Source of the DNA: an uncultured Actinomycetes bacterium
Lineage (GTDB): Bacteria; Actinomycetota; Acidimicrobiia; IMCC26256; DASPTH01
Direction: 5' to 3'
Assembly (NCBI GenBank): GCA_963835985.1
Contig: CAWIHV010000001.1
Location: forward strand, 953,524 to 1,017,523
DNA: 64,000 bases
Shown here: piece after piece, positions 6,094 to 41,373 of the stretch
Numbering within the stretch: the first letter of the stretch is position 1
Layout of the letters: each line of letters opens with the position of its first letter
Position numbers and translations under genes: made by a program
The notes under the pieces: generated by a model
The model's input: only the letters and a program-made list of their open reading frames with translations
Database searches by the model: none
Told to the model about the DNA's origin: nothing

Positions 6094-6177
6094 TGCGAGC
6101 GGGGAGACTCGAACTCCCACGTCCTTGCGGACACCAGGACCTAAACCTGGCGCGTCTGCCGGTTCCGCCACGCTCGC
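6094..6177 (-). tRNA. tRNA-Leu (anticodon TAG)
   Basis: GCGAGCG acceptor stem, D-arm TGGCGGAACCGGCAGACGC, anticodon arm CCAGG-TTTAGGT-CCTGG, long variable arm, T-loop GTTCGAGTC; CCA not encoded. Confidence 0.97.
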
Positions 6178-6306
6178 GTGGCACCCAGTCTCGCATGGCC
6201 AGTGGACAGGCCGACGCGGGTTGGGGACCTTGGCCCCTATCGGGACGATCGTCGCGCGACGGATGGTGTGGGCGCATATGAACAGGATGAGCGAGGCGAC
6301 GACGCG

Positions 6307-6504
6307 ATGAGAGTCTGGATCGACCAGGACCTGTGCACGGGCGATGCCCAGTGTGCGGACATCTGTCCCGAGGTCTTCGTGATGTACGAGGACGGGGGCC
6401 GGTATCTGGCGGCGATCACGCACCCCGAGGTGGACCCAGCGTTGGAGTCAGCCGTGCTCGAGGCCGTCGAGGACTGCCCAGGGGAGTGCATCTTCGTCGA
6501 GTGA
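6307..6504 (+). CDS. Ferredoxin (mono-cluster 3Fe-4S/4Fe-4S)
   Basis: MRVWIDQDLCTGDAQCADICPEVF...EAVEDCPGECI. Confidence 0.92.
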   Translation: MRVWIDQDLCTGDAQCADICPEVFVMYEDGGRYLAAITHPEVDPALESAVLEAVEDCPGECIFVE

Positions 6505-6588
6505 CGCGGCGGGCGACACGCACTCGCACCGTCCCGGGATCCTTCGATACCCTAACCATGTGGCCATCGAACGATGTGGCAGTGAAGG

Positions 6589-7020
6589 ATGAGCCGATCG
6601 CGGACGATCACGGGTGCGGCGCGGGCGGTTGCTCGGCTCGCCAAGCAGGTCGAGGTGGCGCTCGCGCCGCTCGACCTCTCGTTGCCGCAGTACCGGGTGC
6701 TGGCCTTGCTGGGCGAGGGTTCGACCGCGTCGTCGGTGCTCGCCCGCCGACTCGCGGTCAGCCCTCCCTCGGTCACCGCGGTGGTCGACGGTCTGGTCGG
6801 TCGGGGGCTGGTCGAGCGCCAACCCGACCCCGAGGATCGGCGCCGGCTCACCCTGCTCCTCACCCGCGACGGCGCCAAGCTCCTCGCCGCCGCCGACGCC
6901 GCCGCTGAAGCGCGCCTCGACGAGATCGCGACCTTCTTCGACGACACTCCAACCGGTCTCGACGGCTGGAACCTCGCGCTCGACCGCAACCGCGAGGCAC
7001 GCTTGGAGCAGGACAAGTGA
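6589..7020 (+). CDS. MarR family transcriptional regulator
   Basis: LSLPQYRVL..SVTAVVDGLVGRGLVERQPDPEDRR wHTH. Confidence 0.92.
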   Translation: MSRSRTITGAARAVARLAKQVEVALAPLDLSLPQYRVLALLGEGSTASSVLARRLAVSPPSVTAVVDGLVGRGLVERQPDPEDRRRLTLLLTRDGAKLLAAADAAAEARLDEIATFFDDTPTGLDGWNLALDRNREARLEQDK

Positions 7021-9003: not shown

Positions 9004-10994
9004 TGGCATGGGGTGGAGGGACCATCACGGGTGGCGCGCCGATGGGTGGCGCGGTCGGCGGCTCGCCGGGCAACCCCGGCAACGGCCTGCCGTTCGCCGG
9101 GATCCCGTGGGAGATGCGTCAGGGGGTCGAGAAGCTGCTGGCCGACGAGCCCGAGCTCACCGGCGACCCGCGCTGGGAGACGTCGGAGGCTTCGTTCACG
9201 CACCGCATGCACGAGACCGGCATCAGCCTCCGACGGATGCTGCGTCCACACCGCAAGATGATGACGGTCTCCGGGCTCTTCATCCTCGTCGAGGCGCTCT
9301 GCGTGCAGGCCGGACCGTTCCTCAGCCAGATGGGCATCGACAACGGCATCACCCCGCACGACTGGACCGCGCTGGCGATCATCGGAACCCTCGCCATCCT
9401 CGCGGTGGTGGTGTCGGCGGTGGCCAGCGGCGCACGCGTCGCCACCACCGGCCGAGTGGCGTCACGCGTCATGTTCGAGCTCCGCGTCCGTACGTTCGTG
9501 CATCTGCAACGCCTCTCGCTCGACTACTACACCGACGAGAAGGCGGGCGTGATCATGACCCGCATGACGAGCGACATCGAATCGCTCCAGCAACTGCTGC
9601 AGGACGGTCTGCCGCAGTTCGCGCTGCAGGGACTCACGATGGTGATCGTCACCGTGGTGCTGTTCTTCTACAACGTCCAGCTCGCGTTGATCACGCTCCT
9701 GCTCATCGTCCCGATCCTCACCGGCTTGTCGCTGTGGTTCCGCTCGGCGTCCGACAAGGGGTACAACCGCGTGCGCGACGGCATCGCCGGCGTGCTCAGC
9801 GATCTCTCCGAGAGCCTGTCGGGTGTCCGCGTGGTCACGGGGTTCAACCGGGCGCGTCACAACGTGCTGCAGCACCGCAACGTCACGGGGACCTACCGCG
9901 ACGCCAACGACCACACCGCGCGCATCGCCGCGACCTACGGGGCGTGCACCGAGTTCGTCGGACTGCTCGGCCAGGCCGCCCTGCTGCTCATCGGCGGCAA
10001 CATGGTGCGCGACGGCACGCTCTCGGTCGGCGAGCTCGCCGCGTTCATCCTCTACCTCAACTCGTTCTTCGGGCCCATCCAGTCGTTGGTGCAGCAGTAC
10101 AACCTGTACCAGCAGGGTCAGGCGGCGATCACCAAGCTCGACGAGCTGCTCGACACGCACCCGACGGTCGAGGAGGCGGAGGACGCCGCGCCGTTGCCGC
10201 CGATCGAGGGTGCGGTCATGCTCAAGCACGTCTCGTTCGCGTACGACCCGGCCAAGCCCGTGCTGCACGAGGTCGACCTCGACATCGCCGCCGGCGAGAC
10301 CATCTCGTTGGTGGGTCCCACCGGCGCGGGCAAGTCGACGATCGCGAAGCTGGTCACGCGCTTCTACGACCCGACCGAGGGTCAGGTCGCGATCGACGGC
10401 CACGACCTGCGTGACGTCACCATCGATTCGTTGCGCCGTCAGCTCGGTGTCGTTCCCCAGGAACCGTTCCTCTTCGCGGGCACCATGCGCGACAACATCG
10501 CGTTCGCGAAGCCCGATGCGACCGACGACGAGGTGACCGAGGCGATCGACCGCGTCGGGCTCACCGACTTGATCGAGCGGCTCCCGGAAGGGGTCGACAC
10601 GCCGGTCCACGAACGGGGCGTCTCGTTGTCGTCGGGCGAGCGCCAGCTCATCGCCCTCGCTCGTGCCTTCCTGGCGTCGCCACGCGTGCTGGTGCTCGAC
10701 GAGGCCACGTCGAACCTCGACCTCAAGTCCGAGACCCAGGTGGAAGCGGGCCTCGACGCCGTGCTCGAGGGCCGGACCGCGATCATCGTCGCCCACCGCC
10801 TGTCGACGGCCATCCGCGCCGACCGCATCGCGGTCGTCGACGACGGCCGGATCATCGAGCTCGGTTCCCACGACGAGCTCGTCGACGTCCCCGGCGGGCG
10901 TTACGCGGAGATGTTCCAGGCGTGGATTGCGCACCTGGACACCGACGCCGAACACGGGCCCGCGGAGGTGGTCGGGAGCGGGACCACCGGGTAG
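9003..10994 (+). CDS. ABC exporter, fused permease/ATPase (subunit 2)
   Basis: TGATG coupling; GPTGAGKS, LSSGERQL, VLDEAT, VAHR. Confidence 0.93.
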   Translation: MAWGGGTITGGAPMGGAVGGSPGNPGNGLPFAGIPWEMRQGVEKLLADEPELTGDPRWETSEASFTHRMHETGISLRRMLRPHRKMMTVSGLFILVEALCVQAGPFLSQMGIDNGITPHDWTALAIIGTLAILAVVVSAVASGARVATTGRVASRVMFELRVRTFVHLQRLSLDYYTDEKAGVIMTRMTSDIESLQQLLQDGLPQFALQGLTMVIVTVVLFFYNVQLALITLLLIVPILTGLSLWFRSASDKGYNRVRDGIAGVLSDLSESLSGVRVVTGFNRARHNVLQHRNVTGTYRDANDHTARIAATYGACTEFVGLLGQAALLLIGGNMVRDGTLSVGELAAFILYLNSFFGPIQSLVQQYNLYQQGQAAITKLDELLDTHPTVEEAEDAAPLPPIEGAVMLKHVSFAYDPAKPVLHEVDLDIAAGETISLVGPTGAGKSTIAKLVTRFYDPTEGQVAIDGHDLRDVTIDSLRRQLGVVPQEPFLFAGTMRDNIAFAKPDATDDEVTEAIDRVGLTDLIERLPEGVDTPVHERGVSLSSGERQLIALARAFLASPRVLVLDEATSNLDLKSETQVEAGLDAVLEGRTAIIVAHRLSTAIRADRIAVVDDGRIIELGSHDELVDVPGGRYAEMFQAWIAHLDTDAEHGPAEVVGSGTTG

Positions 10995-11051
10995 CGTCGG
11001 ACGACACGTTTCCGAGCGCCACATGAACCCAGCCGGGGGGACCGAGCAGAC

Positions 11052-11450
11052 ATGGCGAACCAGATCCCGATCGTCGACTACCTGGTCCTCGGCGACGGTG
11101 ACCCGCACCTGGAGGCCAACGAGTGCACCAAGTGCGGTGCGCTGTTCTGGGACCGGCGCAACGCCTGCGGCCGCTGCGCCAACCGCGAATTCAAGAAGAG
11201 GAGCCTCGGCACCACCGGGGTCGTGCGTTCCTTCGCGATCGTGCACCAGGCGGCGCCCGGCGTGCCGGTGCCCTACGTGTCGTCGGTGGTCGACCTCGAC
11301 GGCGGGGGCGACGTGAAGGCCAACGTGGTCAACGTCGAGCCCGACCCCCAGCACATATCGCTCGGAATGAAGGTGAAGCTGACGACGTTCGTCGCCGGTA
11401 CGGACGACGAAGGTACCGAGGCCGTGGTGTTCGGCTTCGAGCCGGTCTGA
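11052..11450 (+). CDS. DUF35 Zn-ribbon/OB-fold acyl-CoA-binding protein
   Basis: CTKC..RRNACGRC Zn ribbon plus OB fold; directly upstream of a thiolase. Confidence 0.9.
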   Translation: MANQIPIVDYLVLGDGDPHLEANECTKCGALFWDRRNACGRCANREFKKRSLGTTGVVRSFAIVHQAAPGVPVPYVSSVVDLDGGGDVKANVVNVEPDPQHISLGMKVKLTTFVAGTDDEGTEAVVFGFEPV

Positions 11451-11474
11451 CACTCAGAGAAGAGGAGCGTTCCA

Positions 11475-12676
11475 ATGGGTGAATCCGTCTGGGTGCTCGG
11501 CGCCTCGATGACCAAGATCAGTCGCTACCCCGACAAGGACGTGATCGACCTTGCCGCGGAGGCCACGTTCAACGCTCTCGACGACGCCGGTGTGAGCATC
11601 TTCGACATCGAGGTGCTCGCGGCCGGGAGCATGTTCAACATGGGCGGCATCGGCCAAGCTGGTCGCGAAGCAGATCGGCCAGACCGGCATCCCGATCTAC
11701 AACGTGGTGAACGCGTGCGCCACCGGCGCCACCGCGGTCCGAACCGCGCTGGTCGAGATCCAGGCCGGCAACGCCGACTTCGGCCTCGCCATCGGCGCGG
11801 AGCAGATGGGCAAGATGGGCCTCCTCGCCGGCAACGCGGCACGGGGCGGCGCGAACAAGTTCGAGCCCGAGGGTCGCTACGGCGGCGTCATGCCGGTCGA
11901 CGGCTGGCTCGGCTCGGGCACCATGCCCGCGGTGTTCGGCCAAGCGGGCATGGAGTACGCCTACGAGAACGATGGCGTCGGCTTCGAGCAGTTCGCCAAG
12001 GTCGCGCAGAAGAACCACGAGCACTCGGCGCTGAACCCGCTCGCGCAGTACAACAAGGTGTTCACGCTCGAGGAGATCATGGACGCCCGCGTGATCTCGT
12101 ACCCGAACACGCTGCCGATGTGCTGCCCCACCGGCGACGGTGCCGCGGCGATCGTGCTCGTGTCGGAGTCGAAGCTCAAGACCCTGTCGCTCGAGCAGCA
12201 GAAGCGTGCGGTCAAGGTCAGTGCTTCGGTGCTCACCAGCGACCCGTGGAGCGAGGGCGGCGAATCGCAGCCCGACGTCAACACGCTGACGCGCAACGCG
12301 GCCGACAAGGCCTACGAGCTCGCCGGCGTCGGGCCGGAAGACCTCGACCTGGTGGAGCTGCACGACTGCTTCGCCACCGCCGAGCTCATCCACTACGACA
12401 ACCTGCGGCTCTGCGAGCCGGGCGGTGCGGGTGAGTTCATCGACAAGAAGGCCCCGTGGCGTGACGGCACCATGCCGGTGAACGTGTCGGGCGGTCTGCT
12501 GTCGAAGGGTCACCCGATCGGCATGACCGGCGCGGCCGGCGTGTTCGAGATCACCACCCGAATTCCGCGGCGAGGCGGGCGACCGCCAGATCGAGGGCGC
12601 CAAGGTGGGCATGGCCCACGTCATCGGCCTCGGCTCGTCGTGCGGTATCCACATCCTCGAGAAGGCCGCGCTGTAG
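11475..12676 (+). CDS. SCP2-type thiolase/lipid-transfer protein (frameshifts at about 11657 and 12560)
   Basis: VVNACATG, ELHDCF, SGGLLSKGHPIG; C-terminal HVIGLGSSC in a shifted frame. Confidence 0.88.
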
Positions 12677-12701
12677 GCACTCTTTGCGCCAGCTTTTGCG
12701 G

Positions 12702-12861: not shown

Positions 12862-15800
12862 ATGAGCACGCCGATCACGGCCACGTTCCTCTTCACCGAC
12901 CTCGTGGGGTCGACCGCCTTGGCGTCCCGACTCGGTCCTGACGCCGCCGAGGCTCTCCGGCAGGCCCACTTCGCCATCCTCCGGGGCGCCGCCGATGCCA
13001 CCGGTGGGATCGAGGTGAAGACCACGGGCGACGGGATCATGCTGATGTTCACCGGCCCGAGCCGAGCGCTGTCGTGCGCGGCCGCGATCCAGCAGGGCAT
13101 CGACCGTCACAACCGCCGCGGCGAGGAGCGCCTGGAGCTCCGCATCGGCATCTCGATGGGCGAGGCGGTCGAGGAGGGCAACGACTACTTCGGTGATTGC
13201 GTGGTCGAGGCCGCCCGCCTGTGCGATCGGGCCGAACGGCGGTCAGATCCTCACGACCGACGTGCTGCGCGCGGTGGTCGGGCGCCACAGCACCCACGAA
13301 TTCGTGGCGGTCGGCGACATGGAGCTGAAGGGGATCCCCGACCCGGTCGCCGCGGTCGAGGTCCGGTGGGAACCCGAGGCGGCCGAGGGTGACATCCCAA
13401 TGCCGTCGCGCCTCGTCGGCGCCGCCACCGAGGGACTGTTCGGGTTCTTCGGGCGCGGCGAAGAGCTCACGACCACGCTCGACGCGGCCAAGCGTGCCCG
13501 CGCCGAAGGCCACCCCGAGGTCGTGTTGCTCGAGGGTGAACCAGGCATCGGCAAGACGACGCTCGCCGCGCAGGTGGCGCGCACCATGCACGCCGACGGG
13601 GCAACCGTGCTCTTCGGTCACTGTTCCGAGGGGATGGGGGTGTCGTACCGCCCCTGGATCGACGCGCTGACGCACCTGGTCGAGCACGCTCCCCAGCAAC
13701 TTCTCGAGGATCACGTGGCGCAGCACGGTGCCGCGCTCGCTCGCGTCGTCCCTGCGCTCGCCACGCCGGGTCCCGGACGCCGAACCCGACGGTGGCTCGG
13801 GTGACGCCGACGGCGACCGGTACGCGATGTTGGAGGCGATCTGCGCGTTGCTGCGCGTCGCGGCGCGCGATCAGGTCGTCGTGCTGGTGCTCGACGACCT
13901 GCAGTGGGCCGACGCCGCCAGCCTGCAGGTGCTCCGGCACCTGATCTCGGCGTCGAGCCCACCGCCGCTGTTGGTGATCGGCACGTACCGCGACACCGAC
14001 CTCACGCGCGAGCACGCGCTCACGGCGGTGCTCGCGGATCTCCGGCGCGAGCCGGTCGTGACACGCCTCGCGATACGCGGGCTCGACGATGCCGAGCTGC
14101 TCGCGTTGGTGGAGGGCGCCGCAGGGTACGAGTTGCCTCCCGACGGCGTGCTGCTCGCGCAGGCCCTCTACCGGGAGACCGGAGGGAACCCGTTCTTCAC
14201 CGGTGAGCTCCTCCGCCACCTCTACGAGACCGGGGCCATCGTCTTCGACGACAACGGTCAGTACTCGTTGAGCATCGACCTCGACGAGATCACGCTGCCG
14301 GGCAGCGTGCGCGACGTCGTCATGCGCCGCGTCGACCGACTCGGCGACGACGTGGGGAAGTTGCTCTCCGTGGCCTCGGTCATCGGCCGCACCTTCGATC
14401 TTGCCGTGCTGAGCACGATCGCGGATCAGTCCGAGGACGACGTGCTCGACGTCCTCGAGCAGGCGGTCACGGCCGCGCTGGTGACCGAGGTGGGGGAGCT
14501 CCCGGGTCGGTTCCGCTTCGAGCACGCGCTGATCGAGCACACCCTGTACCAGGACCTCAGCGCCACGCGTCGCCAGCGATTGCACCAGCGCATCGCCCAG
14601 AGCGCTCGAGACGATGGTGGGTGAGCACGCCCCGCCCGTCGCCGAGCTTGCACACCACTGGCTGGTGGCAACGCAACCCGCGGATGCGGCCAAAGCGATC
14701 GAGTACGCCGCGCCTTGCCGGCGACGCCGCGCTGGAGGCGCTCGCGCCAATTGACGCGGTGCGTTGGTTCTCACAGGCGCTCGAGCTCCAGGAACGCCAG
14801 CTCTCGGGCGAGGCGATGGTGCGGTGCGACCTGCTGATCGGTCTCGGTACTGCCCAACAGCTCGCGGGTCTTGCGGAGGAACGTGAGACCCTGCTGGAAG
14901 CCGCCGAGCTCGCACGCGGGGCCGATGATGGCGACCGCCTGGTGCGGGTCGCCTTCGGCCTGGCGCGCGGCTCGCAGGTCTACGACGCCGACGAGGCCCG
15001 AATCGCGACGCTACGGGCGGCGCTCGAGCGGGTCGAGCCGGAGAGCACGGACGCCGCTCGCTTGCACGCAATGCTCACGACCGAGATCGATCCGCGAGAT
15101 CACGAAGCCGTGAGCGCAGAGGCCCTCCGTGCGATCGAGATCGCGCGACGAGCCGGCGACGAGTGCACGCTGCTCGAGGTGCTCAACACGGCGTGGGACG
15201 CCGCCGTCGACCACGCCGACCTCCGACAGCGGCGCGCCACCGCCGATACCGCGTTGGAGCTCGCCGATCGGCTCGATGCCCGCCTCCACGCGTTCACCGC
15301 GCGCTACCACCTCGTTGAGCTCCTGGTGAACGCAGGGGACATCGAGACCGCGCGCGGGGTGTTCGACGAAGCCGTCGAGCGCGCCGCGGCCCTCGGGTTG
15401 CCGTACCCGCGGTGGCAGGTGCTCATCGACCAGAGCGCGTTCGCGGCGATGGCCGGCGATCTCGCCGGCGCGGAGGCGCTGGCAGAAGCTGCGCTCGAAC
15501 TCGCCACGGCAGTGGACATTGCCGCGGGAATGGGTGTGTACGGCGGCCAGCTCGTCAGTCTGCGGTTCATCCAGGGCCGGGTCGACGAGGTCATCGCCTT
15601 CTTCGTCGAGGCCGCGGAGGCCATGCCGACGATCGAACCGCTGCGTCTGGCGGTGATCGTCTTGCTGATCGAGACCGGAGACATCGTGGCCGCGAGCGCG
15701 CGCTTCGAGTACGAGCGCGACCGGGGCTTCCACTACAGCATGACGGGAGAGGTCCAGACGCTCGTCGATGCGGCCGACTGTGCAGTCAATCTTGGCGATC

Positions 15801-16162
15801 GGGAAGCAGCCGGCGTGCTGTTCGAACGCTTGGCGCGCTTCGGCGAGCAGGTGGCGTTCACGCATGCCGTTGCGCCCAATCCGGTCGCGCGTGCGCGTGC
15901 TCGCCTCGCGGCGCTGCTCGGCCGCCACGACGAGGCGGAGGACGCGTTCGCACTGGCACTGACGCAGTGCGGGCGCCTCGCTGCGCCGTACTGGGCGGCG
16001 CGAACCCACGCAGAGCGTGCAGAGATGTACGCGCGTCGCGACGCAGCCGGCGATCGCGAGCGCGCCGAGCGCGATCTCGAAGCGGCACTGCGGCTCGCGT
16101 CGCAGTGCGGCGCGGTCGCAGTCGAGCGGCGCGTCGAACGTGTCCGTGCCGAGCTCGGCTGA
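12862..16162 (+). CDS. Adenylate cyclase + AAA/STAND ATPase + TPR-like helical domain (frameshifts at about 13240, 13765 and 14600-14720)
   Basis: FLFTDLVGST, EVKTTGDG, DYFGDCVVEAARL; GEPGIGKT, VLDDLQWAD, TGGNPFF, RFEHALI; helical repeats to the C-terminus. Confidence 0.88.
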
Positions 16163-16174
16163 TCAGGAGGCTGC

Positions 16175-17194
16175 GTGTTCTACATCGGGTGGCGAGACCT
16201 GCAATTCCGCCGACGGCGGTTCGTCATCGCCATCCTCGCCACCAGCCTGGTGTTCGCGATCGCGCTGATCCTGTCGGGGGTGAGCGGTGGCTTCCATTCG
16301 GAGATCAGCCGCAGCGTCGACGCGTTCGGCGTGCAGGGTTGGGTGGTGCCCACGAGCGCGGCCGGACCGTTCAGCAACTCGAAGGTCTTCGCGCCCGACG
16401 CGGTGAAGGCCGACGTGCAGGGCGGCGGTGAGGTGGCCGCGATGGCCATGACCCGCGTTCCGCACGGTGACAAGGACGTGATGGTGTTCGGCGTCGAGCC
16501 GGGCAAGCTCGGTCCGCAGGCGACGAGCGGTCGTGATGCCAAGGCATCGGGCGAGGTGGTCGTCGACGAGAGCCTCGGGCTCGACATCGGCGACAAGCTC
16601 GACCTCGGCAAACCGTTCGAGGTGGTCGGCACCTACTCGGGGCGGACGATCTTCGCCGGCTCGCCGACCGCGGTCATCCCCCTCGAGGACGCGCAAGAAC
16701 TGACGTACGCCGGGCAGCCCCTCGCCTCCGCACTGCTCACCGAGCGCCTGCCCAGCTCGGTGCCCGACGGGTTCAAGGCGCTGACCAACGCGCAAGCCGA
16801 GGCCGACCTGGGGCGTCCGTTGAAGCAGGCGACCGGCACCATCGACTTCCTCCGGGTGCTCCTCTGGCTCATCGCGGTGGGGATCATCGGATCGATCGTG
16901 TACATGACCGTGCTCGAGCAGACGCGCGACTTCGCGGTGATGAAGGCGATCGGCGTGCAGGGTCGGTCGATCTTCTCCGGCCTCGTCACCCAGGCCGTCG
17001 TCGTCTCGGTGGCATCGGCTGCAGTTGCCGCCCTGCTCACGTTGCTGATCAAGGGGTTCGTACCACTCAACGTGGAGATCTCCACCGGTACGTACATCGC
17101 GCTCCCGGTGATCGCGGCGATCGCGGGGGTCGCGTCGAGCCTGGTCGGCTTGCGGCGCGCGGTGGGTGTCGATCCGGCACTGGCCTTCGGCTGA
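16175..17194 (+). CDS. ABC transporter permease (FtsX/MacB-like)
   Basis: WRDLQFRRRRF N-terminus, ..RDFAVMKAIG, VDPALAFG C-terminus. Confidence 0.88.
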   Translation: MFYIGWRDLQFRRRRFVIAILATSLVFAIALILSGVSGGFHSEISRSVDAFGVQGWVVPTSAAGPFSNSKVFAPDAVKADVQGGGEVAAMAMTRVPHGDKDVMVFGVEPGKLGPQATSGRDAKASGEVVVDESLGLDIGDKLDLGKPFEVVGTYSGRTIFAGSPTAVIPLEDAQELTYAGQPLASALLTERLPSSVPDGFKALTNAQAEADLGRPLKQATGTIDFLRVLLWLIAVGIIGSIVYMTVLEQTRDFAVMKAIGVQGRSIFSGLVTQAVVVSVASAAVAALLTLLIKGFVPLNVEISTGTYIALPVIAAIAGVASSLVGLRRAVGVDPALAFG

Positions 17195-31858: not shown

Positions 31859-34259
31859 ATGAGCGAGCGTCTCCTGCCCCTGTCCGGTCTGCGCGTGGTC
31901 GACTGCACCGTCGAGCGCGGTGAGCTGACCGCCCGTCTCCTCGGCGACCTCGGCGCCGACGTCGTGAAGGTCGAGCCCCCCGGCGGTTCGCCGGCACGAC
32001 AGCTGGCTCCCGTACGCGACGGCGTGTCGTTGGCGTTCGCGGTGCGCAACGCGGGCAAGCGCGGCGTGGTGCTCGATCTCACCGCCGCCGCCGCCCTCGA
32101 TCGCTTCCACGATCTGCTGGCTCACGCCGACGTGCTCGTCACCTCGAGCGCCGAAGTCGCGCCCGGCCTCGACGCGCGTGACGTCGCGGCGCGTCACCCG
32201 CACCTCGTGGTGGGTGCGCTCACGCCGTTCGGGCTCGACGGCCCGTACGCCGACTGGGTCGCGACCAGCGCCACGCTGTCTGCCACCGGCGGCATCGCGT
32301 TCAAGGCCGGCGTGCCCGAGCGCACCCCGATCTTCCCTCCCGGTCACCTCGTCGACGACGCGGCGTCGGTCACCAGCGCGTTCGGCCTGTTGTGCGCGCT
32401 CTACCAGCGTGAGCAGACCGGCGCAGGCCAGTTCGTGGAGGTGGCGGCCAACGAGGCGATCGCGCAGATCGCCGACTGGGCGCTGCCCAACGCCACCGCG
32501 CGCATCGAAGCGGGCTTCCCCGCGGGCGAGGTGCGGTTCGGCAACGGACCCATCTATCCGATCTTCGCCTGCAAGGGCGGCTACGTACGCCTCATCATCC
32601 TCAGCATCCGTCAGTGGCACGCGATGCGCGAGTGGCTGGGTGAACCCGACTACCTCCAGGACCCCGCGTTCGACGGCTTCATGGCCCGGCGCGAGATCTC
32701 CGAGACCGTGCTCAACCCGCTGTTCGAAGCGCACTTCGCCACCATGAGCATGGAGGAGGTGTCGGTCGAGGCGCAGAAGCGGGGCATCGTGTGCACGCCC
32801 GCGCTCACGCCGGCCGACATCATCACCAACGAGCACTTCCTCTCGCGCAACACGCTGGTGGAGTACGAGGTGGCACCGGGCGTGACCGCGCCGATCCCGG
32901 CGGGCTTCTTCGAGATCGACGGCGACCGCGCCGGTCCCACCGCTCCGCCACCGGCAGTCGGAGAGCACACCGACGCGGTGTTCGCCGACCTGGGTGAGGC
33001 ACGGGACGCGTCCGGCGCGACTCCGCGCGCCCAGGTCGTGGCGGGCGCTCCACTCGAAGGACTGCGGGTCATGGACTTCGGCCACGGCGCGGTCGGGGTC
33101 GAGGTCGGACGGCGCTTCGCGGAGTACGGCGCCGAGGTCATGAAGATCGAGTCGCGCACCTACACCGACTTCATGCGCCTCCAGCTCGGTGGTGAGACCA
33201 ACCCGTCGTTCGCGTCGTCGAGTCGCAGCAAGCTCGGGTTCGGTGTCAACGCCAAGACGCCGGAGGGCGTCGCGATCCTCCACGACCTCGCGGCGAAGAG
33301 CGACCTGGTGGTCGAGAACAACTCGACCGGCACGATGGACAAGCTCGGGATCGGGTTCGACGCCCTCCAGGCCGTGAACCCCGACCTGGTCATGGTGTCG
33401 AGCCAGCTGATGGGTTCGCACGGCGCCTGGTCGTGGTGGCGCGGATACGGCCCCAGCACCCAGCCGCCCGGGGGCCTCGTGCACCTCTGGAACTACGCCG
33501 ACACCGACGCGCCCGCGGGTTCCACGTCGATCTACCCCGACCACGTCGCGGGCTGCCTCGGTGCGGTGTCCTCGCTGGCGGCGCTGGTCGGCCGCGCTCG
33601 CGGCGTGAACCACGGCGTGCACGTCGAGGTGGCACAGGTCGAAACGGTCGTGGGGATGCTCGGCGACCTCGTCGCCGCCGAAGGCGTCGCGCCGGGTTCG
33701 GTGGTGCCGCTGGGCAACCGCAGCGAGGTCGGTGCGCCGTGGGGGCTCTACCGGTGCGAGGGCGAGGAGCAGTGGGCGGCCATCACGTGCCGTGACGACG
33801 CCGACTGGCGGGGGCTGGTGGCGGCCATGGGCGATCCCGCCTGGTCGGGCGACGCCGACCTGGCGACGGTCGACGGACGCCGGGCGCGCGCCGACGAGCT
33901 CGACGAGCGCATCGGCGAGTGGACGGCGACGCGCACCGAAGGACGACGTCGCGGCCGCGTGCCAGCGCGAAGGGGTTCCGGCGGCGCCGATGCTCACCGG
34001 CGCCGAGCAGGTGAGCGATCCGCAGTTCGAGGCCCGCGGGTTCGCGGTGAGGATCGATCAGCCCGGCGTGGGCCCGTTGTGGCTCGACGGCGGCGCCTTC
34101 CGCGGCGAGCACATGGAGGGACCCGACGTCCACCAGGCGCCGGAGCTGGGTGAGCACACGCGTGCCATCGCGCGCGACCTGCTCGGGCACGACGACGACG
34201 AGATCGACCGCCTGCTCGAGGCCGGAATCCTCGAGACCACGCCGCCGGTCGGGGGCTGA
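31859..34259 (+). CDS. Tandem-domain CaiB/BaiF CoA-transferase III (frameshift at about 33940)
   Basis: PLSGLRVVD..LGADVVKVEPP and second PLEGLRVMD..GAEVMKIE; APELGEHT. Confidence 0.9.
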
Positions 34260-34268
34260 ACGCCTCGG

Positions 34269-35408
34269 TCAGCGGCTCGAGCTGAGCACGTCGAGGAACG
34301 TCGTCGCCACGCCGCGGGCGAATAACGGTCGACCACGCGGTCGCGCGCGAGCGCGGCACGGCCGCGTGCGGCGTCCGGGATCGGCGACGACCGCGCGCAA
34401 CGTGTCGACGGCGTGATCGAGATCGGGCGCGGCCCACTGCTGGTCACGCGAGTACGACGCGAACGCGTTGTGCTCCACCGCGGTGAGCGTGTGGTCGACG
34501 AGGAACGCGTTGTCGTCGTCGAGATACTCGAGGAAGCCGCCCCACCGCGTCGCGATCACCGGGTTGCCGTAGGCGCTGGCGTCGAACGCGCCGATGCCCC
34601 AACCCTCGCCCCGCGCCAAGGTGAGGTAGCAGTCGCCCCGAGCGTGGAGCCCGGCGATGCGGTCGTCGGTCCACGTCTCGACCTCGAGGTGCACGCGGGC
34701 CGGATTGCGGAACTGGCGCACGAGGCTGGCGACCTGCCAGGGCGTGGTCCACGACAACGGGTTGGCCGCACCCCACTCGCCGGGCGGCATCTCGAGCCGC
34801 GGCCCGGTCTTCACCACGAGGACCACCGGATCGTCGGCGGTGAACGCGCGCAGGTAGGCCTCGATGGCGAGGAACACCGCCTTGCGCTCGTCCCAGCGCC
34901 CGATCGTGTAGAACGCGAAGTGCGTCGGGGTCGAGGCCGAGGCCGGCGCCGGCGTCGCCGGGCACGGGAGCTGTCACCACGTGCGGGACGACGCGCCACG
35001 GGTGTGTCCACGCCGCTGGACACGAAGACGTCACGGTTCCACTCGGTCGGCACGATCACGAGATCGGTCGCGTTCAGCAGCTCGGGCCAGTGCTGCGGCA
35101 GCCGGTCGCTCTCCCACACCGTGTGCGCGACGAACGGGCCGTCGTCGACGACCGATCGCACGAGCGGGTAGTACTCGGGCACGAGGTGGGCGACGGTCGG
35201 CGCGCCGGGTGGCGCGAGCTCGCTCGGGACCGGATCGCGCGAGAACGGGACGAGCGCGGGTGGCGGCTCCGGCGCGCGTGTTCGACCAACCCCGGTACTC
35301 GACGCGGGTGCCGTTGCCACGCACCGCCCGCACCAGCCGATCCGCGGCGTCGCCGTACCCGGTGGGCGCGTCCTCGGCGATGTAGCGAAGCGCGGCGCCC
35401 CTGGCCAC
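34269..35408 (-). CDS. GT4-like (GT-B) glycosyltransferase (several frameshifts)
   Basis: TGYGDA, HTVWESDRLP, VPTEWN, FYTIGRWDERK, GEGWGIG..GNPVIATRWGG. Confidence 0.85.
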
Positions 35409-35409
35409 G

Positions 35410-36247
35410 TCAGAAGATCCGATGGTCGGGGAGGAACCGCTGGGCGGCGAGCGCGTACGTGCTGCTCCCGGCGCGGATCCACGCCTCGTCGATCTGCTGT
35501 GCGTGCACGGCGCTGAAGTCGCGGCGGGTCTCCTCCCACCAGAGATGGGCGGCGAGGTGGATCGAGACGATGCCCTCGAGGTCGGTGTCCCGCTCCACGA
35601 GCAGGCGGCGCAAGCCGTCGGGCGTCGGCGGGAACGCGTGGAACGTGCGCTCGGGCTCCACCCGCACCTCGTCGGGATGGGCACGCGCGAGGTCGTCGGC
35701 GAGGAAGCAGCTGTGCGAGCTCCACGAGCCGTCGAGCGCGCCCTCGATGTCGTCGCGCCACCGACGCGACGTACGCCGCGCCCGGCTCGGCCATCACCAG
35801 CGCGTTCGACAGCGACGGCCGTGACGCACCCGTGCGCACGTCGAACACGTCGGCCTCCCGGCCGATGACCGCGGGTGCGTCCCAGAGCTCGACCGGTGGA
35901 GGCGCGACGAACAGCGTGTCGATGTCGGCGTACAGGCCACCGTGCGCGAGGAGGGCGTCGAGGCGCACGACGTCGGCCTGGTGTGCGTAGGAGTAGTGGC
36001 GCACCACCGGATCGTCGTACGGGAAGTCGACCACGGCCGCGACCGGCTCGACGCGTTGCAGCTCGACGAAGGGCCGGGCGAGGTCCCAGTAGAAGCCGTA
36101 CGGGAGCTCGTGGCAGTGCACCACGATGCGATCCGGCGCGACGACCGCCGCGCACGACGCGATCGCGAGGTAGTGCACGAGGTGGAACGGCTCGATCTGC
36201 GGTCGCAGGCCGAACACGAAGTGGGCGGTGCACGGGATCCGGGGCAT
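35410..36247 (-). CDS. GT32-like DXD glycosyltransferase (frameshift at about 35770)
   Basis: IP..AHFVFG, AHQADVVRL..HGGLYADID, SNAL, HLAAHLW. Confidence 0.85.
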
Positions 36248-36337
36248 GCGCGACGATGATGTGCCTGGGTCGGGTGTCCGCACCGAACGCACGGGCCCGT
36301 GATCGTAGCCAGGGGCCGCCGAGAGCCGCGCGAGAGG

Positions 36338-37541
36338 GTGGTCGTGGGCGATCGGAGGCCCGGATCCGAGGGAGCTGTGCTCGTCACGCCCCTCGCGCCG
36401 GCGCGCTCGGGCAACGGTCTGGCCATGCGGGCCGGCATGCTCTTGGAGGCGCTGGCCGGCGCGGGCCCGGTCGACGTCGTGGTCGTGCCCGTGTCGGGGC
36501 CCGCGGCCGGCGACGCATGGCTGACGGCCACCGCCCGTCGGGTGGTCGCGGTGCGGACCGGCCTGTCTCGCGACCCGCGCCGAGATCGTCGCCGCCCTCG
36601 GGGATCCGCGCGCGGCGCCAGGAGCTCCTCGAGCAGGAGCAGCTCCCGGCGCGTGCACGCGACATCCAGCCCGAGCTCGCCGAGGAAGCGTGCGCCGCGC
36701 TCGAGGAAGCGCCGTCGACCGTGGTGGCGCTCCGGTCGTACCTCGCGCCGTTCGGGACGCGACTCGCTCGGTTGTCAGAGGCGACCCGCTTGGTCGTCGA
36801 CGCCGACGACGACGACGAGGCGCTCCTGCGCGCGCAGGGCGACCAGCTCGGCGCCGACCAGCACGCGCACCTCGCCCGCCGCTGGCTCGGCGCAGGCCGA
36901 TCGCGTGCTGGCGGCATCGCCGATCGACGCCGCCGCGATGAGCGAGCGCTACGGCTTCGCGGTCGACACGCTTCCCAACGCGGTGACGCGACCGGCGACG
37001 GTGACCGACCCACCCGGCCGCGACCGGATCCTCTACGTCGGCAACCTGACCTACGCGCCCAACATCGAGGCGGTGCGCGACCTCGTCGTCGACGTGGTCC
37101 CCGCGCTGCGTGCGCTGGTCCCCGGTGTCACCGTCGACGTGGTAGGGGCACACGACGAGCGACTCGCCGATCTCGCCGGACACGAGGGCGTCAACTTCTC
37201 CGGCGCGGTGCCCGACGTGACGCCGTGGTACGCGGGTGCCGACGTGGTCGTGGTCCCGCTGCGCCGGGGCGCGGGCACGCGCATCAAGGTGCTGGAGGCG
37301 TTCGCGCACCGGCGCCCGGTCGTGGCCACGCCCGCGGCGGTCGTCCGGGCTCGAGGTCGATCGACGGCCGTTCGGTCCACCTCGGTGCCACCGCGGCGCA
37401 ACTCGCCGCGCACACCGCCCGGCTGCTCCGCCGACCCGGCGAAGCCCGCCGGGCGGTCGAGGAGGCGGATGCGGTCCTGTCCGAGCACTACCTTCTCGAT
37501 GTCGTCGTGCCCCGAGCGCCGACGGCTGCTCACCGAGTTGA
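36338..37541 (+). CDS. GT4 glycosyltransferase (several frameshifts)
   Basis: GNGLAMR, LPNAV, LYVGNLTYAPN, VPLRRGAGTRIKVLEAFA..PVVAT. Confidence 0.85.
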
Positions 37542-37588
37542 CGACGACGATCCCCCGAGAAACCCGAAGAGAACCGGAGGAACTGCCC

Positions 37589-37870
37589 GTGGCTGCCGAC
37601 CGTCCCGCCCCCGCGAACGGACTCGACGTCCACGAGGTCGAGGACGGCTTCGTCGTGTTCGACGCGTCGACCGACCGCGTCCACTACCTCAACCCGACGG
37701 CCACCGTGGTGTTCTCGCTGTGCGACGGCTCCCGCACCACCGAGGAGATCGCCGAGCTCGTGCGATCGGCGTGGGAGCTCGACGCCGCGCCGCTCGACGA
37801 CGTGACCGCGTGCATCGCCCAGCTCCGCGACGAGGGAGTGCTGACCGGGCCGTCGACGCCCGCGCGGTGA
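37589..37870 (+). CDS. Stand-alone PqqD-family protein/RiPP recognition element
   Basis: 93 aa: EVEDGFVVFD..RVHYLNPTA..VFSLCDG..EIAE..DV..IAQLRDEGVL; GGAGG RBS at 37576-37580. Confidence 0.9.
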   Translation: MAADRPAPANGLDVHEVEDGFVVFDASTDRVHYLNPTATVVFSLCDGSRTTEEIAELVRSAWELDAAPLDDVTACIAQLRDEGVLTGPSTPAR

Positions 37871-38700
37871 CGTTCGAGCGCCGCCTGCTGTGGCACTCGC
37901 TGCACGTCGACGGTGATCCGAGGGTCGTCGGCCACCTCGAGGCGCTCCTTCCCGACGCCCGCCACCCGATGCCGGCGCGGCGCGCGATGCACTACCGGGT
38001 GACCGCGACGCCCGACGGCTTCACCATCACCGAGGAAGGCGACGAGCTCGCCGACATCGCGGCAGGCGAGCGGGCGGTCGAGGAGGCCGCCGACATCGTG
38101 CACATGCGCGCGCACCGGCGGGCGTTCGAGCTCGCGTCGCTCTCGGGCTGGGCACGCGTGCACGCGGCGACCGTCGACCTCGACGGCGCGCGCGTGCTCG
38201 TGGTCGGCCCGTCGGGCGCGGGCAAGACCACGCTCGCGACCCGACTGCTCCTCGACGGGGCCGACGTCCAGGGGGACGAGAGCGTGCTCGTGCATCGCGG
38301 CGAGAGCCTCGCCGTGCCCGCGCGCTCCACCTCAAGCCCGGGAGCGATCACGTCCTGCCCGAGCTCGCCGAGGTGCTGCCCGACCCTCCCGGTGGTCGGG
38401 CGAGGTCGTCGTGCTCGATCCTGCCCGCGTCGACCACCCGGTCGAGCTCCGCTGTCGCGCCGATTGCCCACGTGGTGCTGCTCACGGGTCCGTCGTCGTC
38501 GCCTGCCCCCGTCACCTGCACGCCGGTCGACGGTGGTGCGGTGCTCGAGGCGCTGCTCACCGACGCCTTCCCGCTGACCGAGACCAAGGCCCGCATGGTG
38601 TCGGTGCTCGCAGGGGCGATGGTGGCCGCACGGGGCCACCAACTCTCGTGGGGACCGCCCAGAACGATGGTCGATGCCCTCGCGCGCCGCGATCAGGTAG
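37867..38700 (+). CDS. HPr-kinase-related P-loop kinase (frameshifts after about 38320)
   Basis: VHAATV..VVGPSGAGKTT..GDESV; GTGA-coupled to the PqqD gene. Confidence 0.82.
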
Positions 38701-38734: not shown

Positions 38735-39034
38735 GTGTCCGAGGACTTCGAAGCCGCGACCGAGGGGCTGAGCGACGGTCGTCGCTCGTTCCTGAAGAAG
38801 ATGGCGATCGGCACCGCGTTCACGGTGCCCGTGGTCTCGTCCTTCACCATGGCCGGCATCCAGGCGGTGTACGCCCAGACGCCCACCGCGAGTGGCAAGA
38901 CGAGCGCCGGCAACGCCACCGCGACCACCTCGGCGACGACGACGCAGCCGAACTCCACCACCACGTCGTCGACGACCACGACCACGCAGGCGAACTCGAC
39001 CGTCACCACCACGGTGTCCGACAGCGGCGGCTGA
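38735..39034 (+). CDS. Candidate RiPP precursor: twin-arginine leader plus Ser/Thr-rich core (99 aa)
   Basis: GGGAGG RBS at about 38721 and GTG start; (M)SEDFEAATEGLSDGRRSFLKKMAIGTAFTVPVVSSFTMAGIQAVYAQTPTASGKTSAGNATATTSATTTQPNSTTTSSTTTTTQANSTVTTTVSDSGG. Confidence 0.82.
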   Translation: MSEDFEAATEGLSDGRRSFLKKMAIGTAFTVPVVSSFTMAGIQAVYAQTPTASGKTSAGNATATTSATTTQPNSTTTSSTTTTTQANSTVTTTVSDSGG

Positions 39035-39047
39035 CCCTGACGGTTCG

Positions 39048-40178
39048 GTGACGCTGTCGGCCGCGATCATCGTCAAGAACGAAGCCGAGAATCTCGACGC
39101 CGTGCTCGTCCTCGCTCGACGGCTTGGTCGACGAGATCGTCGTCGTCGACACCGGATCGACCGACGAGACGGTCGCCGTAGCCGAGCGACACGGCGCTGT
39201 CGTCGCCCACGAGCCGTGGCGGGGAGACTTCGCCACCCCCCGCAACCGCAGTCTCGACCTGGCGCACCGAGCGACTGGGTCTTCTACATCGACGCCGACG
39301 AGCGCGTCGAGGGCGACTTCGCCGCCACGCGGGCGCTGCCTCGGCGGCGGCCGACGACTGCGTCGCGTTCCGGGTGCGCCTCGTGCCCCGGGTCGGGTGG
39401 ACGCCGTTCCTCGAGTTCCGGCTCTGGCGCAACCGCCCCGACATCCGCTTCGCCGGCCAGGTCCACGAGTCGGTGGTGCCCGACGATCCAGACCATCGCG
39501 GAGCGAGAGCTCTTGCGGGTCGACGTCCTCGACCACTGCACCATCCGCCACTACGGCTACGAGGGTGACCGGCCCGACAAGCGTGCACGCGACGAACCGC
39601 TCCTCCTGGAGGAGATCGCCCGGAACCCCGATCGGCCGTTCGTCTACGACCACCTCGCGCGTGTCTACGAGGCTGGTGGCGACGGGCAGCGCGCGGTCGA
39701 GACCTGGAAGCGGGGGATCGCCCAGGCCCGTGCCCGCACCACCGTGCACCCCGACGATCGACTGCTCTACGTCGACCTCATCCACCACCTCCTCGCCAAC
39801 GGCGTGATCGATGACGAGTTGGAGATGCTCGTCAACGACGCACGGGGGCAGTTCCCGCGCACCCCGACGCTCGAGCTCGCCTCGGCGCGCCTCGCGTTCG
39901 CCACCGGCCGGCCGCGTGACGCGTTGGAACCCCTCGAGTGGCTGGTGGATCTCGACGACGACGCCATCCTCGCCACCGGCGCGTCGTACGACGAACGCGT
40001 CTTCGGCGAGTGGGCGTGGGCCCTGCTCGGACTGTGCTGCTTCGCACTCGGTGACGACGTCGCGGCGGCCGACGCGTTCGGTCGCGCCGAGCGCCTGGCC
40101 CCCGACGACGCCTCGTACGGCGTGCGGCGGCGTCTCGCCGAGGCCCGCGCCTCCGCTCCGACACACTCCAGTTCCTGA
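39048..40178 (+). CDS. GT2 glycosyltransferase with C-terminal TPRs (several frameshifts)
   Basis: LSAAIIVKNE, VDTGSTD, DFATPRN, IDADER, VHE, HYGY, then TPR-like helices. Confidence 0.87.
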   Translation: MTLSAAIIVKNEAENLDAVLVLARRLGRRDRRRRHRIDRRDGRRSRATRRCRRPRAVAGRLRHPPQPQSRPGAPSDWVFYIDADERVEGDFAATRALPRRRPTTASRSGCASCPGSGGRRSSSSGSGATAPTSASPARSTSRWCPTIQTIAERELLRVDVLDHCTIRHYGYEGDRPDKRARDEPLLLEEIARNPDRPFVYDHLARVYEAGGDGQRAVETWKRGIAQARARTTVHPDDRLLYVDLIHHLLANGVIDDELEMLVNDARGQFPRTPTLELASARLAFATGRPRDALEPLEWLVDLDDDAILATGASYDERVFGEWAWALLGLCCFALGDDVAAADAFGRAERLAPDDASYGVRRRLAEARASAPTHSSS

Positions 40179-40187
40179 GGCGACCGC

Positions 40188-41373
40188 GTGTCGTTCCCGT
40201 GGCACGACGCACCCTGGTGCGAGGTCGGGGACCTGCTCGAGGCTGTCGCCGACCCGGCGGAGCGGGTGCTGGCTCCCGACCCGTTCTGGTGGCGGTTCCC
40301 CACGCTGTGGCGCTACGTCCCCGCCAACCTCACCGTTGCTGCTGATGACCGCGACGCCGACTACGACTGGGTCGTCGTGCACAAAGGGGAGTTGCCCGCG
40401 ATCCGCGGGCGTTCCTGGAACACGTCGTGGCGACGATGACACCTGTCCTCGCCAACGAGGTGTTCGTGGTGTTCGCGGCGCGTGCGGGACGCACTTGCGG
40501 TCGACGCCGCGGTCACCGCATCTGCTGTCCTTCCTGAGCGCGCTCGCGCAGCTCCCCGCGGAACCCGAGGTGGAGCTGCGCGCGATCAGCGACCGCGTGC
40601 TCGAAGCGTCACCCACGCTGCGCCGATTCGGTGAGCTGACGCTGGCCGAGGCGCGCGCCGAACAGGACGCGTTCTTCACCAGCGGCGGCTACCGCTATCC
40701 GACCGCACGTGACCAGGCGTACTACACAGCGGTGCAGGCGCACCGCGATCGGGCGCTGCGGCCGGGCACGCGCGTGCTCGACGTGGCCAGCGGCGCGTTC
40801 GCTGCAGCACCGCTCCCGCCTGGAGTCACCTTCGTGCGCACCGACTTCTCGCGCGTGGGCATGGCGCAGGCGAGGGCGCGGGACGTCGACGAACCCGGCG
40901 CGCACCACGTCGTGTGCGACGGCGACGCGGTTGCCGTGCGCTCCGACGCGTTCGACACGGTGCTGTTCGTCGACTCGATCGAGCACGTCTTCGACGCCGA
41001 CGCGGTGATCGCGGAGTGCGCCCGAGCCCTCCGGGTCGGCGGGGAGCTCGTGGTCACCTTCTCGAACAAGAACAGCCTCAACCAGCTGCTCACGCGCGCG
41101 CTCGGGTACCCGACCTTCTCCACCAACCACCAGCACGTGCGCGAGTTCACCCCGGACGAGGTGTTCGCGATGCTCGACGCGCACGGACTCGACGTGGTCG
41201 ACACCGCCGGGATCGAGCTGCGTCCCTACTGGGGCGTACCCGGCATCGACCACGTCGTGCGCGACATGGTCGACGAAGACGAGGAGCTGGTCGCGGCGCT
41301 GAGCGAGCTCGGACGCCGCGCGGGGATCGAGTTCGCCTATATCGGTGTCGTGACGGCGCGCGAAGCGGACTAG
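40188..41373 (+). CDS. Class I SAM methyltransferase with N-terminal extension (frameshifts at about 40405-40490)
   Basis: VLDVASG, FDTVLFVDSIEHV, RALRVGGELVVT, HVREFT. Confidence 0.82.

Follow-up and report, generated by a model that had tools for sequence, protein, structure and literature searches.

Position and Layout of the Small ORF

The window analyzed here is a 64,000 nt stretch of DNA from an uncultured Actinomycetes bacterium of the class Acidimicrobiia (assembly GCA_963835985.1, contig CAWIHV010000001.1, positions 953,524 to 1,017,523), and it carries at 38735-39034 (+) a small open reading frame (ORF) of 99 codons that lies in a cassette of genes for predicted glycosyltransferases, a PqqD-family protein and an HPr-kinase-like (HprK-like) protein. 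The ORF starts with GTG, has a Shine-Dalgarno sequence (AGGGAGG) 7 nt before this codon, and its translation begins VSEDFEAATEGLSDGRRSFLKKMAIGTAFTVPVVSSFTMAGIQAVYAQTPTASGK. The 99 aa product is very probably the substrate of the cassette, and the presence on it of a signal of the twin-arginine translocation (Tat) type is well supported.

The protein has the layout VSEDFEAATEGLSDG-RRSFLKK-MAIGTAFTVPVVSSFTMAGIQAVYA-QTPTASGK, followed by a Ser/Thr-rich tail. Its N-terminal module occupies codons 1-47 (38735..38875, +, where 38875 is the last base of codon 47) and comprises an n-region that is acidic (aa 1-15, net charge -5), a twin-arginine motif (G15-R16-R17-S18-F19-L20-K21-K22) and an h/c region, MAIGTAFTVPVVSSFTMAGIQAVYA (aa 23-47), whose 25 residues are uncharged, include Ser, Thr, Gly and Pro, and have a mean Kyte-Doolittle value of 1.33 (best 19-mer, 1.49). 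Within this stretch lies F29-T-V-P32-V-V34, and at its end A44-V-Y-A47 is followed by Q48-T-P-T-A-S-G, with a predicted signal peptidase I site after A47. A first-pass annotation of this DNA, made from the letters alone, had pointed to RR-S-FLKK, F-T-V-P-V-V and A-V-Y-A/Q as the elements of a Tat signal that overlaps a recognition motif, and all three were found where it had placed them. The predicted mature part (38876..39034, +; codons 48-99 plus the stop) is a low-complexity tail of 52 aa, QTPTASGK...SDSGG, with 21 Thr, 9 Ser and 3 Asn; its Pfam matches reflect mucin-like composition only, the full 99 aa protein contains no Cys, and the tail is likely the acceptor of glycosylation. All three Asn residues stand in N-x-S/T, and a role as N-glycosylation sequons was considered and set aside, because in a tail that is 58% Ser/Thr this number is not significant.

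Third-position G+C is highest in the frame of the small ORF. In codons 16-50, the window differs from the related locus L005 by 13 synonymous and 4 non-synonymous changes (16 and 9 against L006), while codons 1-15 differ from L005 by 3 synonymous and 9 non-synonymous changes, a pattern indicating that the twin-arginine, h- and c-regions are under purifying selection and that the n-region is drifting. In the 4.42-Mb genome, read in all six frames, the motif RR.FLK has two occurrences, and of these just the one in the small ORF has an upstream start and is followed by a hydrophobic, nearly uncharged 22-mer. A start at M23 (ATG, 38801), which would drop the arginine pair, was rejected, since the 22 upstream residues are conserved and it is the GTG that has a Shine-Dalgarno sequence.

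Genes of the Cassette

Gene models were taken from L002, a collinear contig of a short-read metagenome-assembled genome (MAG) with ~81% nucleotide identity to the window, because the window assembly has many frame breaks. In L002 the intact cassette spans 5517-12700. Immediately downstream of the small ORF, 13 nt past its stop codon, is the gene for a GT2 glycosyltransferase with TPR repeats (GT2-TPR) of the SunS/GmaR type (39048..40178, +; PF00535 E 1.7e-18 plus TPR), which has frame changes in the window and an intact orthologue at L002:10277-11389. It matches the SunS family TIGR04195 with E 7.8e-17 (61.2 bits, against a cut-off of 350), and its best matches in the PDB are GmaR (2e-19) and SunS (2.6e-15). 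The last gene of the cassette (40188..41373, +) encodes a protein with a C-terminal class I methyltransferase domain (PF08241 E 3.4e-10).

Upstream of the small ORF lies the gene for the PqqD-family protein (37589..37870, +), a stand-alone recognition element (RRE) of the kind found in pathways for peptides made on the ribosome and modified after translation (RiPPs); it has 93 aa and matches PF05402 with E 2e-10 (41.3 bits, against a cut-off of 23.4); an intact copy lies at L002:8779-9048. In the tetranucleotide GTGA (37867-37870), the TGA stop of PqqD shares bases with the GTG start codon of the gene that follows, which encodes the HprK-like P-loop protein (37867..38700, +, end approximate). 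The intact orthologue of the latter, at L002:9090-9953, has 288 aa, and relative to it the window copy is broken by at least two frame changes. An apparent overlap of this gene with the small ORF was discarded, being due to a 1-nt frame difference from L002; the expected stop lies at ~38698-38700. Because of the GTGA overlap and the 13-nt gap before the GT2-TPR gene, the genes appear to form one operon. Further upstream are three more glycosyltransferase genes: GT4a at 36359..37530 (+, approximate; PF13692 E 4.8e-20, or 2.9e-23 for L002, with frame changes in the window), a DXD-region glycosyltransferase at 35410..36340 (-, approximate; PF04488 E 2.8e-7 on the L002 orthologue) and GT4b at 34269..35300 (-, PF00534/PF13692, upstream limit approximate). 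GT4a resembles the glycosyltransferases of PEP-CTERM/XrtA systems (TIGR03087 E 2.2e-32, below the cut-off).

The HprK-like protein gave weak matches to TIGR04352, TIGR04355 and ScmC, and no family was found for its L002 orthologue in the Pfam copy searched. Among its homologues, G-x-S-G-x-G-K-T/S and D-E-S are nearly invariant. An AlphaFold2 model of high predicted accuracy (pLDDT 94.5) matched PEP carboxykinase (PEPCK; Foldseek E 4.7e-6, TM 0.56 of the query) and HprK/P (E 3e-5), so that on the model a PEP-carboxykinase/HprK fold can be assigned confidently, with a putative activity. Most of the homologues (P0334-P0442) carry a precomputed Pfam assignment, PF27840.1, that is absent from the Pfam copy searched, and for one of them, P0419 (47% identity), the source gives the name Actinospongicola halichondriae, which may be that of a cultured carrier.

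The first-pass annotation had noted the lack of a transporter and of a peptidase, and a Pfam/NCBIfam scan of cassette ORFs bears this out: neither was found in any cassette examined. The same scan returned no lasso B2 protease or C cyclase domain, and no export signal was seen in those sequences of the modifying enzymes that were read. Most cassette genes of the window contain frame breaks, as do the flanking housekeeping genes; between 28700 and 49000 the alignment to L002 has 141 gaps that are not a multiple of 3 over ~20 kb.

Conservation of the Module and Diversity of the Cargoes

A word-index search returned 161 homologues at E<=0.01 among 338 candidates, of which 120 were listed, and 98 family representatives were obtained when 1.84 billion cluster representatives were searched exhaustively with HMMER. 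Conservation of the arginine pair, which the first-pass annotation had named beforehand as one of the properties on which its proposal hung, is nearly complete: the default TatP pattern, RR.[FGAVML][LITMVF] (as defined in the consulted part of PMC1182353), is present in 120/120 listed homologues and in 95/98 representatives. The three misses are P0127, which is the only representative to start at M23, and P0133 and P0212, whose first 60 residues contain no RR pattern. Of the listed homologues 119/120, and of the representatives 92/98, have an aromatic/aliphatic-x-x-P-x-[VIL] motif; a small-x-small site at the right distance occurs in 120/120 and 92/98, respectively. In an alignment of 33 sequences drawn from the listed homologues, residues 1-54 are almost invariant and the tail is variable. 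When the query was aligned with 50 of the 98 representatives, a diverse set of 51 sequences in all, R16, R17 and P32 proved invariant and F19, F29, S36, F37 and G41 at least 90% conserved; F29 and P32, which had been singled out as a lasso-like motif, are thus among the best conserved positions. QTPTASG is conserved in the close homologues; across the wider family neither it nor the n-region is conserved.

Behind this module the cargoes differ greatly. They include Thr-rich tails, repeats of GSN, PNQYQ, GGSNTTD or GGGGNT, Cys-rich domains of ~110 aa and a conserved domain of ~130 aa with a Pro-rich linker, and the N-terminal module is the only part common to the family members. Neither this range of cargoes behind one module nor the GT2-TPR neighbor appears in the first-pass annotation. 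RREs recognize their clients by sequence (sections of PMC11626156). If PqqD proteins do the same then, since only the module is shared and the cargoes differ, the common recognition site must lie in the module; of the arguments that signal and recognition site overlap, a shared module with divergent cargoes would therefore be the strongest, although it is indirect.

Two further regularities were seen in the cargoes. The extreme C-terminus is P-x-[F/T/V/L]-T-G in 21/98 cluster representatives (P0136-P0211), and a cassette-linked member of 212 aa in L029 (L029:728-2038, +) ends in ...ITFTG. Such an end could be a site of C-terminal modification or processing; in lasso clusters, HPr-kinase homologues phosphorylate a C-terminal Ser (parts of PMC8498205). 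Asn occurs in all short core repeats of divergent linked members (GSN, PNQYQ, GGSNTTD, GGGGNT and GNTDGGT), which are represented by L032:9758-10201 (-), L034:9820-10266 (+), L040:3-236 (-), L051:4728-5534 (-) and protein P0165. Given this and the three N-x-S/T in the tail of the window protein, the acceptor could be either Ser/Thr or Asn. Six weak profile matches (G196, G341, G127, G139, G179 and G283; E 6e-5 to 6e-4) were rejected as generic signal-like similarity, and the surroundings of four of them (G283, G196, G341 and G179; L036-L039) contained no cassette parts by phmmer and no family-like N-terminal module by regular expression.

Linkage in Genomes and Metagenomes

The cassette is found in Acidimicrobiia-like actinobacteria and is carried by many soil actinobacteria. 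Seven species-representative contigs have the small gene, four of them collinear with the window and one keeping all parts; in another the GT/PqqD/HprK block is inverted downstream, and the last, L007, has deletions. The small gene, GT2-TPR and PqqD lie within ~6 kb of each other in the window, L001-L006, G362, G376, G319, G239, G280 and G067, and in G055 the cassette is divided between two contig ends. When 401 genomes of the class were scanned by profile, the small-protein family was detected in 16 and strong members of the PqqD subfamily (E<=1e-20) in 11, of which nine also had a small-protein match; a divergent copy next to the GT2-TPR gene of G067 was missed by the profile. One unpublished genome, G389, was left out of the examination.

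A metagenome scan with the subfamily alignment A5 found 127 contigs that encode a relative. Among the best 80 of these 127, PqqD was present on 36/39 of those with 1 kb or more of flanking sequence upstream and GT2-TPR on 31/35 with at least 1.2 kb of downstream flank, and where both sides extended for at least 1.5 kb, one or both genes were present on 16/16 and both on 12/16. Loci L053-L132 supply roughly 50 linked pairs of PqqD and small protein. The linkage between the two is therefore very consistent, and the GT2-TPR gene immediately downstream is the closest and most constant neighbor of the small gene. PqqD-linked cassettes without a detectable GT2-TPR gene were also found (L090, L100, L130 and L131), and L029, L031 and L034 lack the HprK-like gene.

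L007, from genome G401, has lost the equivalents of window positions 34264-38665 and 40148-41372, spanning the genes from the GT genes to the HprK-like gene on one side of the small gene and removing the methyltransferase gene on the other, and no PqqD of the cassette subfamily is left in the G401 genome. Its small gene (L007:9902-10269) carries R16S, F19S, K21E and a 2-nt deletion, while the h-region, the tail and the GT2-TPR gene still look intact. This may be read as a natural loss, in which the PqqD block is gone and the twin-arginine motif has degraded, and it was counted in favor of a connection between the two.

Other enzymes occur beside related cassettes. In L031, which lacks the HprK-like gene, a Stealth-family sugar-phosphate transferase is encoded at 15269-16237 (+), and in L032 an NTP_transf_5 nucleotidyltransferase at 15229-16449 (-). 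By analogy with pseudomycoidin, these neighbors hint at phosphate-linked glycans.

Predicted Export Route

The small protein is in all likelihood exported by its own N-terminal signal, and the route is probably Tat rather than Sec. The Tat-signal anatomy recognized in the first-pass annotation held up, with RRxFLK, a moderately hydrophobic uncharged h-region and a V-x-A site; Tat h-regions are weakly hydrophobic (consulted part of PMC1182353), and that of the small protein agrees. The machinery that had been presumed is available, as the genome encodes both TatC (G000:C6:35520-36155, E 3.5e-62) and signal peptidase I (Peptidase_S26; G000:C6:33024-33578, E 8.2e-43). The two genes are ~2 kb apart on C6, a contig other than that of the window (G000:C6:33024-36155). 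In a language-model atlas the module is nearest to unnamed clusters, and the nearest named ones are methylamine dehydrogenase light chain, a Rieske Fe-S 'TAT signal domain' and Fe-hydrogenase small subunit; their scores (0.84-0.87) make them leads only. All three are families that we take to be Tat substrates.

Possible Recognition of the Signal by PqqD

In database comparison the PqqD protein is nearest to the lasso B1 proteins, with NF033530 at E 1.9e-8 (for the L002 orthologue) and TfuB1 (6jx3_B) at E 0.009 in the PDB. Lasso leaders carry YxxPxL at positions -17 to -12 (sections of PMC10368454), and at the level of sequence the resemblance of F-x-x-P-x-V to this motif is a real one. PqqD (with an alignment of 45 rows) was co-folded with residues 1-60 of the small protein (51 rows) in three runs, along with three controls. 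The median ipSAE was 0.38, against 0.00 for the three controls, with 92% or more of the contacts reproduced between runs and a partner pLDDT of at least 59. The pass mark was reached by 58/80 solved complexes and 2/110 mismatched pairs; scores of 0.60 or lower were obtained for only 7/80 solved complexes and for both mismatches. The modeling suggested in the first-pass annotation thus gave a weak signal for an interaction, and nothing in it places PqqD on F29/P32. On balance, the odds tilt slightly towards PqqD binding within residues 14-48. That such binding would delay export until glycosylation is complete is a more doubtful proposition.

Proposed Pathway and Competing Explanations

In the pathway that fits these observations best, the PqqD-type recognition element would bind the 47-residue module after translation and present the Ser/Thr(/Asn)-rich tail to the GT2-TPR and GT4/DXD transferases and, where present, to the HprK-like protein and the methyltransferase. 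The decorated product would then be handed to TatC/TatA, and housekeeping signal peptidase I would cut after A-V-Y-A to leave a peptide starting with QTPTASG. At its core this whole chain of steps, with the ORF product as substrate of a cytoplasmic cassette that is conserved and glycosylates peptides or proteins, has about an even chance of being correct. The further proposal of the first-pass annotation, that PqqD acts as a hold-back chaperone on the signal peptide, would be a reasonable reading of the sequences. In its full form, a stand-alone PqqD-fold RRE would double as a Tat 'proofreading' chaperone, holding the twin-arginine signal while the transferases (phospho)glycosylate the cargo and then releasing the bulky product to Tat, and the module would be a portable 'modify-then-export' tag for unrelated cargoes. 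This version, which would make the cassette the first natural RiPP-like pathway to use Tat, is put forward tentatively.

Several observations weigh against a PqqD-bound substrate that leaves by Tat. The linkage counts show consistency and not independent events, because the genomes and sequences are related. Four tandem Cys-rich family members at G279:C6 (L033:4682-7187) stand among housekeeping genes, far from PqqD, L097 has three small-protein copies and no PqqD within 3.8 kb, and in G292 a PqqD/GT4 block has no family member within 10 kb. A fifth Cys-rich copy in G279 lies between three PqqD genes (G279:C1; L050:3574-14853), in a second cassette that also holds an NTP_transf_5-GT4 fusion, a GT4-GNAT fusion and a LuxR regulator. 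With the Pfam TAT_signal model (PF10518), no match was obtained for the window protein up to E 10, and only 2/51 family members were hit (best E 0.02), and the NCBIfam Tat model TIGR01409 gave none at E<=0.01; short Tat hidden Markov models (HMMs) of this kind are weak detectors. The c-region lacks basic residues, which makes the sequence compatible with Sec export. The frame breaks in the window are probably assembly error, because flanking housekeeping genes are similarly broken and the window's relatives are long-read MAGs, but decay of the window copy is possible. By the calibration of the method, such a co-fold score is wrong in more cases than it is right, except for pairs that were already likely, and it may echo RRE-leader complexes that have been solved. 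In the lasso work described in sections of PMC10368454, Ala changes in YxxPxL barely affected phosphorylation by an HPr-kinase homologue.

Among the competing explanations, one keeps a real Tat or Sec signal on the substrate and places the binding of PqqD elsewhere, on the n-region or on QTPTASG, or makes PqqD an enzyme adaptor only; the conservation of the h-region would then come from another constraint, such as the TPR domain of the GT2-TPR protein or TatBC. It can point to a co-fold that returned no contacts, to the conservation among close homologues of QTPTASG, which lies past the cut site, to the position of the GT2-TPR gene as closest and most constant neighbor, and to the bufferins, where modification on overexpression in E. 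coli did not need the Sec signal peptide (sections of PMC11626156), a result that also counts against the proposed pathway itself. It is nevertheless considered unlikely, since the residues conserved family-wide are RR, F19, F29, P32, S36, F37 and G41, and not QTPTASG or the n-region, and since there are PqqD-linked cassettes without a detectable GT2-TPR gene. Nor is it probable that the module is a purely cytoplasmic RiPP-style leader, with a product that stays inside or leaves by an unlinked route. The Tat HMMs without a match and the aromatic-x-x-P-x-aliphatic motif shared with lasso-type leaders would suit this explanation, but the listed homologues all have the full n-h-c layout with a small-x-small site, as do 92/98 representatives, RRxFLK occurs only twice in the six frames of the genome, and no alternative exporter was found in the cassettes examined. 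The cargoes, moreover, include Cys-rich domains, which are typical of extracytoplasmic proteins.

An uncleaved membrane anchor of a mucin-like glycoprotein (N-in, C-out), in which the PVVSSF...G face would serve as a helix-helix contact, is quite improbable. The maximum hydrophobicity over 19 residues is only 1.49, with Ser, Thr, Gly and Pro in the stretch, and a conserved V-x-A/G site follows; on the other side, the h-region is unusually conserved for a cleaved signal, and the P0053 homologue is named 'uncharacterized membrane protein' by one source. The chance that the ORF is an accidental open frame with a fortuitous motif is negligible. High-G+C DNA yields many long spurious ORFs, and an 18-kb part of the window is overlapped by 140 ORFs that are 40 aa or longer, but the 161 homologues at E<=0.01, the 98 cluster representatives, the synonymous excess, the Shine-Dalgarno sequence and the conserved synteny speak against it; codon-position G+C, the synonymous excess and the homologues likewise rule out a gene on the opposite strand.

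Comparison with Described Systems

The Tat proofreading chaperones known as redox enzyme maturation proteins (REMPs), such as NapD, TorD and DmsD, belong to folds other than that of PqqD. Their mode of action, as given in parts of PMC3712460 and PMC3316669, is like the one proposed here: a small cytoplasmic protein binds a specific Tat signal, the determinants of transport and of chaperone binding overlap, and the substrate is held until maturation is done. REMPs differ in serving cofactor-containing redox enzymes (same sources), whereas the role of PqqD in the cassette is a predicted one. No protein of the PqqD/RRE fold acting as a Tat chaperone was found in the literature searched, and the papers that mention both PqqD and twin-arginine are unrelated by title.

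By analogy, the closest precedent would be the bufferins, which have Sec signals. As described in sections of PMC11626156 and PMC12452194, bufferins and other RiPPs modified by oxidative enzymes that depend on multinuclear non-heme iron (MNIO enzymes) share with the cassette the cytoplasmic modification, a general-secretion signal that replaces the classical leader, a partner with an RRE-like domain, and the lack of a dedicated exporter or leader protease. The bufferin authors raise the speculation that the signal peptide stays masked by the partner as long as modification is unfinished (part of PMC12452194). The differences lie in the signal, which is of the Sec type there and of the Tat type here ('Tat' and 'twin-arginine' occur 0 times in PMC12452194), in the chemistry, where MNIO enzymes convert Cys to thiooxazole according to these sources and glycosylation is presumed here, and in the RRE, which in bufferin systems is a domain of DUF2063 proteins, whereas the cassette has a stand-alone PqqD and no MNIO gene.

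SunS and ThuS are S/O-glycosyltransferases of glycocins, and GmaR is a flagellin O-GlcNAc transferase. Like these enzymes, the GT2-TPR protein has a cytoplasmic GT2 domain followed by TPR-like repeats, and its gene is found beside that of the acceptor. It scores far under the SunS equivalog cut-off (61 vs 350 bits), so that the relationship is at the family level only. Glycocins have a Cys-containing, disulfide-stapled core, a double-glycine leader and a SunT-type exporter; the small protein has no Cys, helix-hairpin core or double-glycine leader, and the cassette has no SunT-type or other ABC exporter.

The lasso clusters of paeninodin, pseudomycoidin and BsfK are similar in pairing a PqqD-like RRE with an HPr-kinase-like enzyme and in having a nucleotidyltransferase (parts of PMC8498205 and PMC10368454), the related cassettes L032 and L050 carrying NTP_transf_5; in pseudomycoidin, according to the same sources, phosphate-linked hexoses are known. 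Unlike these clusters, the cassette lacks a cyclase and a B2 protease, its precursor has a signal-peptide layout, and the kinase-like gene is missing from several of its versions. A pair of a PqqD-family protein and an HprK-related P-loop protein also occurs in the HPr-rel-A (TIGR04352, TIGR04353) and SynChlorMet (ScmC/ScmD) systems, from which the cassette differs in scoring 21.0 and 23.5 bits against HPr-rel-A cut-offs of 200 and 35 bits. We know of no described Tat-signal substrate in either system, and the term 'HprK-related kinase' was not found in the literature searched. Membership of the lasso, PQQ, glycocin and HPr-rel-A families was rejected for the cassette because the tested defining feature of each was not found. 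In common with RiPP precursors, the small protein is short, has a conserved leader and a variable core, and is encoded beside modifying enzymes and a PqqD/RRE; the dedicated leader peptidase or exporter of RRE-dependent RiPP pathways was not seen in the cassette ORFs scanned.

Implications for Peptide Export

The arrangement suggests that a peptide receives its decoration in the cytoplasm and is then exported through the general Tat route, not through a dedicated pump. No natural RiPP-like precursor with a Tat signal was found in the literature (subscription journals lay outside the search), and the combination of RiPP, twin-arginine, leader peptide and glycosyltransferase was not found in the literature searched; one paper only speculates about the Tat route for lanthipeptide display and reports failed attempts (PMC5686179). 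If correct, the proposed pathway would add to the Sec-dependent bufferins a second case, mechanistically distinct, of ribosomal peptides that are modified in the cytoplasm and leave by housekeeping export, and the first such case on Tat, the one pathway built to carry finished cargo. The RRE/PqqD fold would also gain a new job, as a signal-peptide chaperone, and a compact 'modify-then-export' tag of ~47 residues would be defined that is testable for the export of engineered glycopeptides. Soil and peat metagenome contigs commonly carry the cassette (127 encode a relative); it has no described product, and so it points to an unexplored class of secreted bacterial glycopeptides.

At the left border of the cassette insertion, the window contains an ORF of ~800 codons (31859-34259, +) with a frame change near 33950. 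From its translation, read by eye, it presumably consists of two tandem halves that are like CoA-transferase family III.

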